Position numbers and translations under genes: made by a program
In this document: positions 4,493 through 60,120 of the stretch, piece by piece
Layout of the letters: the number at the start of each line of letters is the position of its first letter
Numbering within the stretch: the stretch's first letter is position 1
The notes under the pieces: generated by a model
The model's database searches: none
Told to the model about the DNA's origin: nothing
The model's input: the letters and a program-made list of their open reading frames with translations, nothing else
Sequence record: MH550421
Reading direction: 5' to 3' (one strand)
Source: Enterobacteria phage T6
DNA length: 64,000 bases

Positions 4493-6000
4493 ATGGATAT
4501 TAAAGTACATTTTCACGACTTCAGTCATGTACGCATCGATTGTGAAGAGAGCACGTTTCACGAATTAAGAGATTTCTTTTCGTTTGAGGCCGATGGATAT
4601 AGATTTAATCCTCGCTTCAGATGTGGCAACTGGGATGGACGAATCCGTCTTTTAGATTATAATCGACTTCTTCCATTCGGCTTAGTCGGGCAAATTAAAA
4701 AGTTCTGTGATAACTTTGGCTATAAAGCCTGGATTGACCCACAAATTAACGAAAAAGAAGAATTATCAAGAAAAGATTTTGATGAATGGCTTTCTAAATT
4801 AGAAATCTATTCAGGAAATAAAAGAATTGAACCACACTGGTATCAAAAAGATGCAGTGTTCGAAGGATTAGTTAATCGTCGTAGAATTCTTAATCTTCCA
4901 ACATCTGCAGGTAAATCTTTAATTCAAGCTTTGCTTGCGCGGTATTATTTGGAAAATTATGAAGGTAAAATTCTTATCATTGTTCCAACAACTGCTCTGA
5001 CAACTCAGATGGCTGATGACTTTGTTGACTATCGTTTATTCAGTCATGCAATGATAAAGAAAATCGGTGGCGGAGCATCAAAAGATGATAAATATAAAAA
5101 TGATGCACCAGTCGTTGTTGGTACATGGCAAACTGTAGTTAAACAACCGAAAGAATGGTTCTCACAGTTTGGAATGATGATGAATGATGAATGCCATCTT
5201 GCTACAGGAAAAAGTATTTCATCTATCATATCAGGATTAAATAATTGCATGTTTAAATTTGGTTTGTCTGGTTCATTACGTGATGGAAAAGCCAATATCA
5301 TGCAGTATGTTGGAATGTTTGGTGAAATATTTAAGCCAGTAACGACTTCTAAGTTAATGGAAGATGGACAAGTAACTGAGCTAAAAATTAATAGTATTTT
5401 TCTTCGCTATCCCGATGAGTTCACTACTAAATTAAAGGGAAAAACTTACCAAGAAGAAATAAAAATTATTACTGGGCTTAGTAAAAGAAATAAATGGATC
5501 GCTAAATTAGCTATTAAGCTTGCGCAAAAAGATGAAAACGCTTTTGTCATGTTTAACATGTATCGCATGGTAAAGCTATTTTCGATTTAATTAAAAATGA
5601 ATACGATAAAGTTTATTACGTATCAGGGGAAGTTGATACCGAAACCCGCAATATAATGAAAACCTTAGCTGAAAATGGTAAAGGAATAATTATAGTAGCT
5701 AGTTATGGTGTATTTTCTACTGGTATTTCAGTTAAAAATCTGCATCACGTTGTTTTAGCGCACGGTGTTAAATCAAAAATCATTGTATTACAAACAATCG
5801 GTCGTGTATTACGTAAGCATGGTTCTAAAACAATCGCAACAGTCTGGGACCTCATAGATGACGCGGGCGTAGTTTCTAAATCAAAAACATCTTCTAAAAA
5901 ATACTCGCATTTAAACTATCTTTTAAAACATGGAATTGATCGTATTCAGCGTTATGCTGATGAAAAGTTTAATTATGTGATGAAAGAGGTTAAACTTTGA
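4493..6000 (+). CDS. uvsW: UvsW SF2 helicase, reading frame broken by an apparent 1-nt deletion near 5552-5556
   Basis: ORF 4493..5590 carries Walker A (LPTSAGKS) and DECH; ORF 5656..6000 in another frame carries motif VI (QTIGRVLRK); restoring one A in TTTAACATG gives a continuous 502-codon gene. Confidence 0.85.
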
Positions 6001-6689
6001 ATTATAAATTAATATATGATAATTTAATTAATAGAGCCCAGAATCGGGCTCGCCTTAATGAATACACTGAAACACATCATATAATTCCTAGATGTATGGG
6101 TGGTACAAATGATAAGTGTAATTTAGTAGAACTAACGGCTGAAGAACATTTTATAGCCCATAAACTTTTAGCTAAAATTCATCCAAACCATTACGGTATA
6201 ATTAAAGCTGTTATATGTATGGGGATGAATTCAAATACTCATGAAAGACACGTCAATAAATCTTACGCATGGGAACGTCGTAAAATGGCAGAACTTCAAT
6301 CCGGCGAAGGTAATCCATTTTACGGAAAACACCATACGGAAGAACATAAACAATATATGTCAAAACTCATGAAAAGTCGTCCAATTACATGGGGAAATAA
6401 AATTAGTAAAACTAAAAGAATGAACCCAACGAAATGGACTGAAGAAGCTAAAAGATTACATTCAATCAATCAATCGGGTAAAAATAACGGCATGTATGGA
6501 AGGAAACATTCCGCTAAATCTATTCAGAAAATTAAAGATAACATGCCAGATAATTCAGGAGCTAATAACCCAGCTGCTAAACCTATAGAAGTAAATGGTG
6601 TTAAGTATAAATGTATGAAAGATGCTTCTAAAGCTACTGGATTATCAATGTACAAACTAAGAATACTTAGAAAAACAGTTAATTTATAA
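5997..6689 (+). CDS. HNH homing endonuclease, MobE-like, with NUMOD-type C-terminal DNA-binding modules
   Basis: 230-aa ORF; N-terminal HNH core (ETHHIIPRCMGG ... NLVELTAEEHFIAH) about 60 percent identical to MobE in this window; apparent TTG start overlapping the uvsW TGA stop. Confidence 0.8.
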   Translation: MNYKLIYDNLINRAQNRARLNEYTETHHIIPRCMGGTNDKCNLVELTAEEHFIAHKLLAKIHPNHYGIIKAVICMGMNSNTHERHVNKSYAWERRKMAELQSGEGNPFYGKHHTEEHKQYMSKLMKSRPITWGNKISKTKRMNPTKWTEEAKRLHSINQSGKNNGMYGRKHSAKSIQKIKDNMPDNSGANNPAAKPIEVNGVKYKCMKDASKATGLSMYKLRILRKTVNL

Positions 6690-6714
6690 GGGCTTCGGCC
6701 CTTTGGAGAAAAAG

Positions 6715-6945
6715 ATGTTACTAGAATTTAAACAATTTCTTTATGAAGCTTCTATTGATGAATTTATGGGTAAAATTGCCTCTTGTCAAACATTAGAAGG
6801 TTTAGAAGAACTTGAAGCTTATTATAAGAAAAGAGTCAAAGAAACTGAATTAAAAGATACTGATGACATCTCTGTGAGAGATGCTTTGGCAGGAAAAAGA
6901 GCTGAATTAGAAGATTCAGACGATGAAGTAGAAGAAAGCTTTTAA
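6715..6945 (+). CDS. uvsW.1: UvsW.1 (76 aa)
   Basis: ATG at 6715 preceded by GGGCTTCGGCCC hairpin and GGAGAAAAAG Shine-Dalgarno; 76-aa product matches the reported size of T4 UvsW.1. Confidence 0.65.
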   Translation: MLLEFKQFLYEASIDEFMGKIASCQTLEGLEELEAYYKKRVKETELKDTDDISVRDALAGKRAELEDSDDEVEESF

Positions 6946-42996: not shown

Positions 42997-43674
42997 TTAT
43001 AAGCTATTTATAGGAAGCAATTGATACTTGCAAGATTTCACAGATTCAATGAAAACATTTTTAGCTTTCGGAGAATCAATATTTAAAATTTTTCTATAAG
43101 CCTTTAACTTTATAGAATAATTATTCCAGACTAAATTATCAGTCTGTTCATCATGTTTATCAATTATATTTAAAAATGAATCAAGCAAGATAAACGTCTC
43201 AAACGAAATTATGTTCGATTGCAGAAGTTTAAAAATATAACTTGACTGAACCTTTGGATTATATTCAAAGATTTCTTTAAAAGCAGAAACTTCAACTTTT
43301 TTACTAAAATAATAAATATTGCGAATATCTTCTTCAAACTTAAATTTAATTTGCTTTAAGCGTCCGATATATTCACGATAAAACACAAGTGCATCAGCGT
43401 CAGAGATGTCACCAATCCAAGCATCTTGGTTAGCAACAAGATTGCTTATAAAGATTAAAGCAAGTTCCTTTAATTTATATTTTTCTGATAACTTCTGGAA
43501 AAAATACTTATCCCTTCGCTTTTGATAAGCGGCATCAGACACCCGCATGCACCAATTATACTTAATAACATCATACTTTCCATTCATATGTTGTTTTATC
43601 ATTAAGTATAATTTATAAACTGATTTACCATCAATGTATCTTTCACCACCAGCAGGCATGGCGGAGTTTAATCA
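42997..43674 (-). CDS. 59: Helicase loader gp59, with a frameshift after codon 5 and a C-terminal extension
   Basis: ATGATTAAACTCCGC (MIKLR) at 43674 is out of frame with the main ORF (42997..43659, MPAGGERY...) because of one extra G/C at 43660-43664; the ORF also runs 8 codons past the T4-like ...SCKY end. Confidence 0.8.
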
Positions 43675-44010
43675 TAGCAGAAAATCTAATGTATTAGTTT
43701 TTTCACAACGAACAACAGAAGGACGTAAAAGATTTTCGTCAATAGCTTCTGACTGAATTTTTTCAATTATACCCGAAGGAATAAATTTAGCAAATTGAGT
43801 TTCAGGAATAGAATTTTCTTCTAAGAATGCTGTTGTAGCTTCAAGATAACTCATTCCAAACTCTTCTACCATTTTTTCAATAATAAATCCATTTTCTTGA
43901 CGATCAAGAAGCTTTGCTATTTCATCCTTTTCTTTCTTGATTGAAAGTTCTTTTTCTGAAAGACCGGTCTCATCGACCGGACGAATGTCATTTAGAGAAA
44001 ACTGTGTCAT
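43672..44010 (-). CDS. 33: Late transcription co-activator gp33
   Basis: 112 aa from MTQFSLNDIRPVDE... (track ORF has a 3-codon extension). Confidence 0.85.
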   Translation of the reverse strand: MTQFSLNDIRPVDETGLSEKELSIKKEKDEIAKLLDRQENGFIIEKMVEEFGMSYLEATTAFLEENSIPETQFAKFIPSGIIEKIQSEAIDENLLRPSVVRCEKTNTLDFLL

Positions 44011-45287: not shown

Positions 45288-48200
45288 ATGGCCGAGATTA
45301 AAAGAAAGTTCAGAGCAGAAGATGGTCTGGACGCAGGTGGCGATAAAATAATCAACGTAGCTTTAGCTGATCGTACCGTAGGAACTGACGGTGTTAACGT
45401 TGATTACTTAATTCAAGAAAACACAGTTCAGCAATATGATCCAACTCGTGGATATTTAAAAGATTTTGTAATCATTTATAATAATCGTTTTTGGGCAGCA
45501 ACGGATAATATTCCAAAACCTGCTGGAAATTTTAATAGAATTCGTTGGAAAGCATTACGTACTGATGCCGTATATACAACCGTATCATCTGGACCATATC
45601 AATTAAAATCCGGAGAAGCAATTTCAGTAGATACATCAGTTGGCAATGACATTGAGTTTACTTTACCACCTTCTCCGCTTGATGGAGAAACCGTAATAAT
45701 TCAAGATATCGGTGGAAAACCTGGCATAAATCAGGTTAAAATAAATTCTTCAAATCAGAGTATTGTCAATTTTAGAGGTGAACAGGTACGTTCAGTTTTA
45801 ATGACTCATCCAAAGTCACAGATGGTATTCATTTTTAATAATCGTTTGTGGCAAATGTATATTGCTGATTATAGCAGAGAAGCTGCGATTGTTACTCCAT
45901 CGACTGCATATCAAGCACAATCTAATGATTTTATCGTACGTAGATTTACTTCTGCCGAACCGATTAATGTTAAACTTCCAAGATTTGCCAATCATGGAGA
46001 TATCATTAATTTCGTTGATTTAGATAAATTAAATCCACTTTATCATACAATTGTTACGACATATGATGAAACGACGTCAGTGCAAGAAGTTGGAACTCAT
46101 TCCATTGAAGGCCGTACATCGATTGACGGTTTCTTGATGTTTGATGATAATGAGAAATTGTGGAGATTGTTTGACGGGGATAGTAAAGCACGTTTACGCA
46201 TTATAACAACTAATTCTAATATTCGTCCAAATGAAGAAGTTATGGTATTTGGTGCGAATAACGGAACAACTCAGACAATTGAGCTTCAGCTTCCGACTGA
46301 TATTTCTGTTGGTGATACTGTTAAAATTTCCATGAATTACATGAGAAAAGGACAAACAGTTAAAATCAAAGCTGCCGGTGAAGATAAAATTGCTTCTTCA
46401 GTTCAATTGCTGCAATTCCCAAAACGTTCAGAATATCCGCCTGAAGCTGAATGGGTAACAGTTCAAGAATTAGTTTTTAACGGTGAAACTAATTATGTTC
46501 CAGTTTTACAACTTGCTTATATAGAAGATTCTGATGGAAAATACTGGGTTGTACAGCAAAACGTTCCAACTGTAGAAAGAGTAGACTCTTTAAATGCTTC
46601 TACTAGAGCAAGATTAGGCGTAATTGCTTTAGCTACGCAAGCTCAAGCAAATGCTGATTTAGAAAATTCTCCACAAAAAGAATTGGCAATTACTCCAGAA
46701 ACGTTAGCTAATCGTACTGCTACAGAAACTCGCAGAGGTATTGCAAGAATAGCAACTACTGCTCAAGTGAATCAGAACACCACATTCTCTTTTGCAGATG
46801 ACCTTATCATCACTCCTAAAAAGCTGAATGAAAGAACTGCTACAGAAACTCGCAGAGGCGTTGCTGAAATTGCTACGCAGCAGGAAACTAATACAGGTAC
46901 TGATGATACTACAATCATCACTCCTAAAAAGCTTCAAGCCCGTCAAGGTTCTGAATCATTATCTGGTATTGTAACTTTTGTATCTACCGCAGGTGCTACT
47001 CCAGCTTCTAGTCGTGAATTAAATGGTACGAATGTTTATAATAAAAACACTAATAATTTAGTTGTTTCACCTAAAGCTTTGGATCAGTATAAAGCTACTC
47101 CAACGCAACAAGGCGCAGTAATTTTAGCAGTTGAAAGTGAAGTAATTGCTGGACAAAGCCAAGAAGGATGGGCAAATGCGGTTGTAACGCCAGAAACGTT
47201 ACATAAAAAGACATCAACTGATGGAAGAATTGGTTTAATTGAAATTGCTACGCAAAGTGAAGTTAATACAGGAACTGACTATACTCGTGCAGTCACTCCT
47301 AAAACTTTAAATGACCGTAGAGCAACTGAAAGTTTAAGTGGTATAGCTGAAATTGCTACGCAAGTTGAATTCGACGCAGGCGTCGACGATACTCGTATCT
47401 CTACACCATTAAAAATTAAAACCAGATTTAATAGTACTGATCGTACTTCTGTTGTTGCTCTATCTGGATTAGTTGAATCAGGAACTCTCTGGGACCATTA
47501 TACCCTTAATATTCTTGAAGCAAATGAGACACAGCGTGGTACACTTCGTGTAGCTACACAAGTTGAAGCTGCTGCAGGAACATTAGATAATGTTTTAATA
47601 ACTCCTAAAAAGCTTTTAGGTACTAAATCTACTGAAGCGCAAGAAGGTGTTATTAAAGTTGCAACTCAGTCTGAAACTGTGACTGGAACGTCAGCAAATA
47701 CTGCTGTATCTCCAAAAAATTTAAAATGGATTGTGCAGAGTGAACCTACTTGGGCAGCAACTACTGCGATAAGGGGCTTTGTTAAAACTTCTTCTGGTTC
47801 ATTAACGTTTGTTGGTAATGATACGGTAGGTTCAACACAGCCATTAGAATCATATGAGAAAAATGGTTATGCAGTATCACCATATGAATTAAATCGCGTA
47901 TTAGCAAATTACTTGCCATTAAAAGCAAAAGCTGTAGATAGTAATTTATTAGATGGTCTAGATTCGCTCCAGTTCATTCGTAGGGACATTGCACAAACAG
48001 TTAATGGTTCACTAACCTTAACCCAACAAACGAATCTGAGTGCCCCTCTTGTATCATCTAGTACAGCTACATTCGGTGGATCAGTTTCAGCAAATAGTAC
48101 ATTAACTATTTCTAATACTGGAACGGCAACTCAATTGATTTTTGAGAAAGGACCTCAAACTGGAACAAACCCGGCTCAAACGATAACTGTCAGAGTGTGG

Positions 48201-54008: not shown

Positions 54009-54806
54009 TTGGAGAAAATTATGGCAGTAGTTGGTGTTCCCGGTTGGATTGGAAGTTCATCCGTAAATGAAACAGGACAACGATGGATGAGTCAAGCGGC
54101 TGGTCAATTAAGATTGGGTGTTCCTTGCTGGATGAGCCAATTCGCCGGACGCTCAAGAGAGATTATTCATACTGTAAGTGCTAATCATAATTTTAATGGT
54201 CAGTGGTTCCGTGATAGATGCTTTGAAGCTGGCGGTGCACCCATTGTATTCAATATTGTTGGTGATATCGTTTCTTATTCTAAAGATGTGCCACTTTTCT
54301 TTATGTATGGGGATACGCCTAATGAATATGTTGTTCTTAATATTCATGGTGGTGTTCATATGTGGGGTCGTGGTGGTAATGGCGGTAGCAATAGTCCTGG
54401 CTCAGCTGGGGGTCATTGTATTCAAAACGATATTGGTGGGAGACTAAGAATTAATAATGGCGGAGCTATTGCAGGCGGTGGCGGCGGTGGCGGCGGCGGA
54501 TATTATTCTCCTTTTCCACAAATGAGATTGACCTTTGGCGGCGGGGGCGGTCGTCCTTTTGGTGCGCCAGGCGGATCTATTAATATGCAATCAGGCGCGA
54601 CTGGTGGTACTATTTCTTCACCTGGCTCAGGATCCGTGAATGGTATCTATAATGGTGGAAACGGTGGTGAAGTAGGTTCCGCGGGAGGTAGATGCAATAT
54701 TCGCGGTCAAGGATCTGAATATGATGGCGGTGCTGCTGGTTATGCTGTCATAGGGTCCGCTCCAACATGGCAAAATGTTGGAGCAATATATGGTCCAAGA
54801 GTATAA
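54009..54806 (+). CDS. 38: Tail fibre adhesin gp38 (T2-type, glycine-rich motifs)
   Basis: 265-aa ORF with conserved N-terminal attachment domain and multiple Gly-rich motifs including a G9 tract (54474..54500). Confidence 0.8.
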
Positions 54807-55931: not shown

Positions 55932-56206
55932 TCGAAATAATCTTCAATTTCGTAATCATGGACGTAAATCATTATAGTTTTTAATACATCATCAATACTT
56001 TTTCCTGGAGCTGGAATTACGTAAAAATATCCTGCTTTTGAGAGGTCTTTATAAGTTCCAACCAAGAAATCATTATTCTCGAGATGTAATTCTTCAACTA
56101 ATTCATTAACAATTGAATGGTATAAATTTGGTAGAAACTTATATAGCTTTTCTAGAATATCAATTTTGATTGTATATTGAACCACAGATTGAGAATCAAT
56201 AATCAT
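55928..56206 (-). CDS. arn: Anti-restriction nuclease Arn (by size, acidity and position)
   Basis: 92-aa acidic ORF immediately upstream of asiA as in T4. Confidence 0.6.
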   Translation of the reverse strand: MIIDSQSVVQYTIKIDILEKLYKFLPNLYHSIVNELVEELHLENNDFLVGTYKDLSKAGYFYVIPAPGKSIDDVLKTIMIYVHDYEIEDYFE

Positions 56207-56510
56207 AGACCTTCCCCTTATGTTTCTGTTTGCGATTAGATTCTTTAAACGCTTTCTTCTTATCTTTATGGACAGAAGCTTTATTAAAATTATGTTTTGC
56301 GACTAAATTGTTCTCATAATGCTGAATTACCTCTCTTAAACATTTGCATGTGAATGAAAACTTTTTAGCTACACCACATTCAAATATATGTTCTCTTAAA
56401 TCACGTGTGTCAGTATATCCCATCTCAACAATAAAATGCCGTATTAGATTTTTATCTTTATCATTGAGGGAATTAAAATAGTCAGATTTTGAATTAATTT
56501 CCCTGGCCAA
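56196..56510 (-). CDS. Hypothetical basic Cys-containing protein, 104 aa
   Basis: ORF in the arn-motA block. Confidence 0.45.
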   Translation of the reverse strand: MAREINSKSDYFNSLNDKDKNLIRHFIVEMGYTDTRDLREHIFECGVAKKFSFTCKCLREVIQHYENNLVAKHNFNKASVHKDKKKAFKESNRKQKHKGKVYDY

Positions 56511-58350: not shown

Positions 58351-58500
58351 TTACTGCATGACTGTGATAACTATCATGATAACACGTTGAATTCCGAACG
58401 CAAGAAGACCTCCTGCTACGGCTGGAACAACACCTAACCCCGCAAGTAAAATGCTACCAAATACTAATGCAGCGCTTGTAATACCAATGAATGGACTCAT
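58351..58500 (-). CDS. Small hydrophobic membrane protein, 49 aa (position of T4 motA.1)
   Basis: ATG overlaps the TGA of the restored gene 52 frame; product is almost entirely hydrophobic; below the track cutoff. Confidence 0.4.
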   Translation of the reverse strand: MSPFIGITSAALVFGSILLAGLGVVPAVAGGLLAFGIQRVIMIVITVMQ

Positions 58501-59826
58501 TTGATTTCCTCTAAATCTTTGGTGTATTCTGTAACTACATCAGTAGTTTTCCAATATTCGTTTTCTTCTTTTTTAGCTTTAGCTTCTTCAGCAAGTTTCT
58601 TTGCTTCATCGGAAGTCATATGAAAAATATTCATTCCAACTAGTTTATCAACATAAGAAGAATACATATCAATTTTAGAAAGTTCTTCGGGTCAGTTCTT
58701 TACGAGTTTTACCCTGTACAACAATTTCACCCGAAATTACTTTCTTAATGAAATGCGCCTTGGCAAAGGCTAAACGAAAAGCTGACTCAGTTTCTTTAAT
58801 TTTGTTATCAATTCGTTTTTGGACATAAGTTTTACGAACTTCAACGAAGTCTTTGATTAAATCAACTACGTTATCGTAAACTTGTAGCTTTCCTTTCTCA
58901 TTAATAACCGTAATATTCTGAGAACGACGCTCAATCAGTCCGAAGTCTTTCATAATTTTTGCATGGCGTTCTTCTTCGTTATCGCTCAAAGAATATTCTT
59001 TACGGAATTTAACTTTGAATCCAAACCCGTGCTCACCGCAAGCATCATCCCATGTAATGAAGCCTTTATCTTCAAGCGAGTCTAAAATTTTACTCACATA
59101 AGTTTCACGATCATACTTATACGGAATCTCAGTGATATGCATTTGAGTTCGTGAAGTAAACTTATATGTTCCACGAATTTCATATTGACCATCAATCTCA
59201 ACGACTTCACCACGAAATTCTGGGAATTCTACCTTTGGTTTAGTTACTTTCTTTCCTTGAAGAGCTTGTAATACAGCTTTCTTAACAGAAGAAACACTAT
59301 GAGGAAGAATGTAAGTTGCATAACCAGTTGCAATACCGGAAACGCCATTAAGAAGAACAGTAGGAATAATAGGCAAATAGAAAGCAGGCGGAATGTGTTC
59401 TTTATCTTGATGTACCGGAGCATATTCAGTATCTTTATATACGTTATAGAAATTTTTACTTACACGAGCAAAAATATAACGACTTGCCGCTGCTTTTTGA
59501 ACAGTACGAGAACCAAAGTTTCCTTGACCATCTAACAGAGGAAAGTTATTATTCCAAGTGTTAGCCATCAAAGCACCTGCGTCTTGTGCAGAGTTTTCGC
59601 CATGGTGATATCCAAGGTCCGCTACACCACCTGCGATAGAAGCAAGTTTGTGAAACTTATCTTTATTTCCTCGTGCCAAATCAAGAGCTCGAGCAATAAC
59701 AAATCGTTGAACTGGCTTAAATCCATCAATCATATTTGGGATAGCACGATTTTCAACCGTGTACATAGCATAAGCCAATGCTTCATTATCAATGATACTT
59801 TTTAAATCGCGATTATTCAGTTGCAT
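58501..59826 (-). CDS. 52: DNA topoisomerase II medium subunit gp52, frame broken by an apparent 1-nt insertion near 58689-58691
   Basis: Track ORF 58675..59826 (383 aa) stops early; removing one C from ACCCGAAG continues the frame 59 more codons to a TGA at 58501 that overlaps the next ATG, giving about 442 aa. Confidence 0.8.
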
Positions 59827-59830
59827 AAAT

Positions 59831-59971
59831 TTACCATACTAGTGAATGTAGTGCCATAATAACATCAGAAATGAAAAGCACGACTTGAATCAATCCGAAC
59901 ATTACTCCATAATATAGTGCTATTAATAAAATAGCAAGGGCTAATGAATAGCCCAAGATTTTCTTAATCAT
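59831..59971 (-). CDS. Small hydrophobic protein, 46 aa
   Basis: ORF MIKKILGYSLALAILLIALYYGV... immediately upstream of gene 52; TAATG overlap with the preceding small ORF. Confidence 0.35.
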   Translation of the reverse strand: MIKKILGYSLALAILLIALYYGVMFGLIQVVLFISDVIMALHSLVW

Positions 59972-60120
59972 TAGATAACAACACAAATGTTAAATATGCA
60001 CCACATACCCTGGGCTAAAGCCTGCGAAAACACACTGCTGGCATCGATACAGATAGTTAAAACACATGCTACTATCCAACAAATAAATGAAATAACTCCT
60101 AATAATTTTGCGATATTCAT
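59971..60120 (-). CDS. Small hydrophobic membrane protein, 49 aa (possibly ac)
   Basis: ORF MNIAKLLGVISFICWIVACVLTICID... between ndd and gene 52, where T4 carries ac. Confidence 0.35.
   Translation of the reverse strand: MNIAKLLGVISFICWIVACVLTICIDASSVFSQALAQGMWCIFNICVVI

Follow-up and report, generated by a model that had tools for sequence, protein, structure and literature searches.

Gene 52 of Enterobacteria phage T6, the topoisomerase II medium subunit gene, ends early in the deposited record MH550421. Does the phage really carry a truncated gene, can a gene broken in this way still work, or is the deposited sequence wrong? We analyzed the 64-kb stretch MH550421.1:104707-168706, which is called the window below. 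An offset of 104706 converts record positions to window positions, and window positions are used unless the record is named. Coordinates of the features are collected in Table 1.

Gene 52 as written and after removal of one C

The gene 52 ORF starts with the ATG at 59826 and stops at the TAA at 58675-58677, and its C-terminal residues are KTRKELTRRTF. The initial annotation had read this early stop as the result of an inserted C, and the stop is plainly seen in the sequence. The gene strand ends with CTG ACC CGA AGA ACT TTC TAA, and CTGACCCGAAG occurs a single time on the gene strand of gene 52. At the frameshift site, T6 AP018814/NC_054907 and T4 NC_000866 both have ACCG. There is one extra C, as annotated, whereas the C run said to contain it is merely CC that became CCC.

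One C was removed from the gene in silico. The repaired gene was 1329 nt long, encoded the 442 aa that had been expected for gp52, and was 100% identical to AP018814 gene 52 in both DNA and protein. A compensating second indel within gene 52 was ruled out, because the repaired gene was base-for-base identical to AP018814. Alignment of the repaired 442-aa protein to T4 gp52 revealed differences only at P250S and N253D, which are the same two gp52 differences given by the authors of the T4 and T6 topoisomerase structures (PMC11461880). The gene 52 region had 99.9% identity to T6 and ~97% identity to T4, T2, and RB phages.

As written, gene 52 lacks 63 native residues (380-442) and keeps 86% of the protein. 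A second ORF begins 7 nt past the premature TAA in a different frame, and its ATG at 58667 corresponds to Met387. Because this downstream, out-of-frame ORF of 56 codons equals exactly gp52 residues 387-442, the truncation of gene 52 is not a matter of chance. The native stop codon, TGA at 58497-58499, overlaps the motA.1 ATG at 58498-58500 as ATGA. The overlap with the next gene had been correctly proposed, whereas its TGA had been misplaced at 58501.

Table 1. Features of the window, with the matching T6-Hancock entries against MH550421
Feature	Window position	Strand	Description	T6-Hancock entry: MH550421 position (window position)
uvsW indel	5554..5555	+	One A missing, TTTAAAC to TTTAAC; ORFs of 365 aa and 114 aa	insA: 110260 (5554)
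Gene 59 3'-end cluster	43003..43072	.	7 private substitutions in 70 nt; stop TAA to CAA	substitutions: 147709-147776 (43003-43072)
Gene 59 5' lesion	43660..43678	-	Private +G in codon 6 (MIKLR/MPAGG); ORF opens only at Met6	delG: 148365 (43660); C>T: 148384 (43678)
arn.1 insertion	56312..56313	-	Private +TC; arn.1 (Y16B) fused to next small ORF (DUF7230), 104 aa	delTC: 161017 (56312-13)
motA.1, next gene	58351..58500	-	49 aa; ATGA overlap with native gene 52 end; own GAGG 8 nt upstream	
Downstream ORF in native gene 52 frame	58497..58667	-	56 codons, MYSSYVDKLVG...LEEIK, gp52 residues 387-442	
Gene 52 (topoisomerase II medium subunit), as written	58675..59826	-	383 codons: 379 native residues + RRTF, then TAA	
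Frameshift site	58689..58691	-	CCC (GGG on + strand), codons 379/380; one C surplus against all other sequences	del CG>C: 163394 (58688-89)
ac (acridine resistance) insertion	60001..60001	-	Private +1 base; last 11 residues replaced, 51 aa to 49 aa	delC: 164706 (60001)

The 383-aa product matched T6 and T4 gp52 (PDB 8yo3/8ylu) with E = 2e-296, and eukaryotic topoisomerase II and GyrA/ParC with E values of 1e-42 to 1e-21. Sequence homology to the GyrA-ParC-like breakage-reunion subunit (PF00521) was present. Up to residue 379 the product does not differ from T6 gp52, and this part includes the catalytic Arg-Tyr segment AASRYIF. AAASRYIFARV is retained in the 383-aa ORF, and this 'RY' catalytic center of gp52 is named in the structural study (PMC11461880). 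The same study gives the domain layout of gp52 as WHD, Tower, and Coiled-coil (PMC11461880). As these three make up gp52, residues 380-442 would form the end of the coiled-coil region. A complete WHD-Tower-Coiled-coil subunit of 442 aa was obtained in one frame only after the one-C deletion. An AlphaFold2 model of gp52, built from the single sequence to place the lost residues, reached a pLDDT of only 36 and was discarded.

The extra C in other T6 data and in relatives

The extra C was found neither in T6 AP018814/NC_054907 nor in T4. Data Set S1, sheet 5, of Subedi and Barr 2021 lists the differences between the 1972 stock T6-Hancock and MH550421 (PMC8573959). The T6-Hancock stock lacks the extra C, which appears in this table as a CG>C deletion at MH550421:163394. 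The variant was already present in a published supplementary table, where it stands without comment (PMC8573959). The independent Logan assembly SRR24085887_24 did not have it either; this assembly matched AP018814 at 100% identity across 5809 nt and encoded a 442-aa gp52. The run SRR24085887 is not merely the Japanese T6 stock again, because it has the window's gp38 allele at 54640. Neither this run nor SRR12606221 was mentioned in the literature searched; SRR12606221 may belong to PRJNA662192 (T6-Hancock).

A 71-nt site carrying the extra C was searched against phage records. It was present in 0 of 370 matching records, and the best identity, 98.6%, corresponded to the single gap. Searches of IMG/VR and of GTDB genomes found no match to the extra C; the sequence lacking it, used as a positive control, matched five IMG/VR contigs. 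One metagenome match to a 21-mer with the extra C was rejected as a chance 24-nt match in an unrelated contig of 62% GC. The exact 383-aa product was not present among 15 billion proteins. Depositors apparently left gene 52 unannotated, because the variant table gives no CDS at 163394 and the 383-aa product is absent from the proteins.

A short form of gene 52 shared by relatives would have spoken for a natural truncation. None of the relatives had one, neither the 370 site-matching records nor the 10 diverse relatives with an identical MotA, in all of which gp52 was 442 aa. Each listed member of the gp52 cluster was also 442 aa. Judged from these sequence comparisons, the extra C in gene 52 is private to record MH550421. 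The anatomy of the gene had been described correctly, whereas a biologically truncated topoisomerase subunit is not borne out by a base found in this record only.

The window aligned end to end with AP018814 104702-168697 at 99.973% identity, with 11 mismatches and 5 indel sites. MH550421 and T6-Hancock differ at 16 listed sites, and each entry downstream of 104706 coincided with a difference found in the window. AP018814 differed from the other T6 stocks at just 3 positions in 64 kb (46177, 46186, and 54640). The window differs from AP018814 by substitutions at 46177 and 46186 (gene 34) and at 54640 (gene 38), and none of them is listed against T6-Hancock. The gene 38 allele of the window was also present in two Logan T6 assemblies. 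These three sites look like genuine polymorphisms between T6 stocks in tail-fiber and adhesin genes.

Other private changes in MH550421

MH550421 contained 5 private indels and 8 private substitutions in this 64 kb, 13 private changes in all. The indels affect uvsW, gene 59, arn.1, gene 52, and ac, and each of them breaks or alters a conserved ORF. Four of the indel sites (all but uvsW) were aligned to T4, which agreed with AP018814 at each of them. Three of the 8 substitutions were transitions, and 6 of 8 were AT>GC changes in a genome of 35.6% GC. The private products were found in no Logan or ENA assembly, and each was known from a single NCBI contig, under MH550421 accessions.

At the uvsW site, AP018814 and T6-Hancock agree with each other, and UvsW in relatives is one 503-aa helicase. 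The pieces of the split gene (4493-6000) are annotated separately in GenBank as AXN58216.1 and AXN58217.1. An ORF of 230 aa for an HNH-type homing endonuclease (5997-6689) lies between uvsW and a uvsW.1-like ORF (6703-6945); it is annotated as a homing endonuclease in AP018814.

Gene 59 (42997-43678) was changed from 217 aa to 220 aa as annotated. The cluster at its 3' end caused two amino-acid changes and added 8 residues through the lost stop, and 5 of the 7 new bases were G on the + strand. This 7-substitution version of the gene end had no match among 491 phage records. Recombination was considered as the source of the cluster and rejected, as no donor was present among the 491 records. 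At the other end of the gene, a private T>C at 43678 lies 18 nt from the +G.

The arn.1 fusion (56196-56510) is annotated as the hypothetical protein AXN58289.1. Its +TC was not found in two independent T6 read assemblies, AP018814, or T4. The ac gene is located at 59971-60120. Both ac and gene 52, the latter for a subunit of the topoisomerase targeted by aminoacridines, were struck, and nothing shows that this is more than coincidence.

Origin of the extra C and its consequences

The extra C is probably an error of the deposited MH550421.1 sequence, most likely of sequencing or assembly; a technical cause, and not a mutation, is what we infer. It would have been introduced in sequencing, assembly, or consensus calling, and gene 52 in the phage itself would be intact and encode 442 aa. 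Artefacts of the same type would then account for the truncation of gene 52, for the 56-codon ORF left behind, and for the lesions in uvsW, gene 59, arn.1, and ac. A record error is favored because the private changes are many in comparison with the real divergence of T6 stocks, are clustered, are rich in indels and transversions, damage ORFs, and were never reproduced. As expected of a database error, the extra C is absent from independent sequencing of the strain (AP018814, T6-Hancock, and SRR24085887). Such errors have a precedent in T4. Three resequenced T4 stocks had 172-175 variations, including 73-75 indels, against the T4 reference AF158101, and the quality of the NCBI RefSeq records was cited as the main reason why T2 and T6 were less variable than T4 (PMC8573959). 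The AF158101 errors are alike: they, too, are private indels by which small ORFs are broken or fused, and they are gone on resequencing. The difference is that MH550421 is a 2018 record of the Illumina era, when errors of this sort should be less frequent.

The leading alternative is a genuine mutation private to the sequenced stock, a C duplication by replication slippage; it is unlikely, yet some points speak for it. It holds this rank because the record is reported to be Illumina-based and because the indels are confined to dispensable or conditionally needed genes. According to Subedi and Barr, MH550421 was produced with Illumina (PMC8573959), a report that favors a real mutation, and this technology would not usually leave ~13 errors in a 64-kb consensus, one of them a CC>CCC insertion. 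The extra C is a simple one-base duplication, and the other private indels are likewise simple. All five indels lie in genes that are non-essential or conditionally essential in T4 (uvsW, 59, arn.1, 52, and ac), as real mutations of a viable stock would, which speaks against record error. We estimate the probability that random errors would spare essential genes at roughly 0.1, a value that follows from a guess that ~40% of the window is essential. [quoted passage not shown] Should the C be real, gp52 would be without its final 63 residues, which should inactivate the phage topoisomerase, and the stock would most likely be a mutant of the DNA-delay type, with late DNA synthesis, cold sensitivity, and reliance on host gyrase. 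The combination of uvsW and gene 59 also recalls a suppression reported earlier: mutants in recombination proteins are relieved of DNA arrest when UvsW is lost (PMC3016281).

Against a real mutation, 0 of 13 private changes appeared in any other T6 data set. The cluster of seven substitutions within 70 nt, for which none of 491 records offers a donor, does not resemble spontaneous mutation. The private branch of MH550421, with frameshifts making up 5 of 13 changes, would be several times longer than the whole divergence among the other T6 stocks. Simultaneous null alleles of 52, 59, and uvsW should also be very costly: without its topoisomerase, T4 relies on recombination-dependent replication (PMC4396842), and this mode of replication requires gp59 and UvsW (PMC3016281). 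A special form of the mutational reading takes all five frameshifts as real. The sequenced phage would then be a T6 that had been exposed to acridine or selected with it, lacks a working topoisomerase, and initiates replication from R-loops in the absence of UvsW. Part of this reading is that ac, gene 52, and the suppressor pair gene 59 and uvsW were all struck. Short duplication or deletion frameshifts are the type induced by acridines in T-even phages, and the phage topoisomerase is the target of the aminoacridine m-AMSA. We consider such an acridine history very improbable.

A frameshift that is real in a gene that still works is very unlikely. Reinitiation would yield gp52 in two pieces (residues 1-383 and 387-442), or the ribosome would occasionally slip by +1 somewhere from codon 380 to codon 384 and so produce some full-length protein. 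Translation is known to restart after premature stop codons in T4 rIIB, and in the window the native-frame ATG of Met387 follows the TAA by 7 nt. In addition, the large subunit of the T4 topoisomerase tolerates a natural split (PMC11461880). However, no Shine-Dalgarno-like motif was present in the 18 nt before the ATG of the 56-codon ORF at 58667. For +1 recoding, inspection by eye of ACC CGA AGA ACU UUC UAA revealed no recognizable slippery motif or upstream Shine-Dalgarno. The frameshifted arrangement was not conserved either: none of 370 records, no IMG/VR contig, and no GTDB genome had it, and in all 10 diverse relatives the gene was fused and encoded 442 aa. The 56-aa products that are called separately in public data were contig-edge or error cases, and none was accompanied by the extra C. 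The exact product was called separately in 5 contigs, 0 of 5 with the extra C, and the SRR547740 contig with such a product had other local errors; a further one was chimeric upstream. Nothing in these data pointed to recoding or to a naturally short gene 52.

Two apparent leads around the 56-aa product were dropped. Three of the 5 contigs, from T4-like phages, begin exactly at the ATG, which would suggest a natural break at gp52 Met387; this was attributed to selection by the exact-product look-up. The '90% cluster' of the 56-aa ORF was a spurious grouping with protein kinases. As a separate observation, the short metagenome contig ENA ERZ27280646 k141_273554 (1-130) has unrelated sequence joined to approximately the last 320 nt of gene 52, which reflects either chimeric assembly or a mosaic junction within gene 52 of an uncultured T4-like phage.

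The T4 gp39/gp60 split resembles the present case in that a topoisomerase subunit is encoded in two consecutive ORFs. That split is tied to an inserted segment and is fixed and functional in T4. The 'split' of gene 52, in contrast, consists of one extra base in a single record, and its second piece has no ribosome-binding site. The DNA-delay amber mutants of T4 gene 52 are alike in that a real C would make the gene 52 of the window, too, an allele with a premature stop; these mutants synthesize DNA late and depend on host gyrase (PMC4396842). The window differs from them in being T6, in having a late frameshift that keeps 86% of the protein, and in being known from sequence alone.

Whether an error or a stock mutation, the extra C is nothing of a new feature kind. 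If real, it would be just another loss-of-function allele of gene 52, a class known since the 1960s. With record error as the preferred reading, the finding matters for the use of MH550421, a widely used T6 reference in whose last 64 kb at least five genes are given incorrectly (uvsW, 59, arn.1, 52, and ac). Protein databases now contain its aberrant products. When variants of T6 escape mutants are called against it, the private sites will be reported as mutations in every sample. For the last 64 kb of the T6 genome, AP018814/NC_054907 is the better reference.
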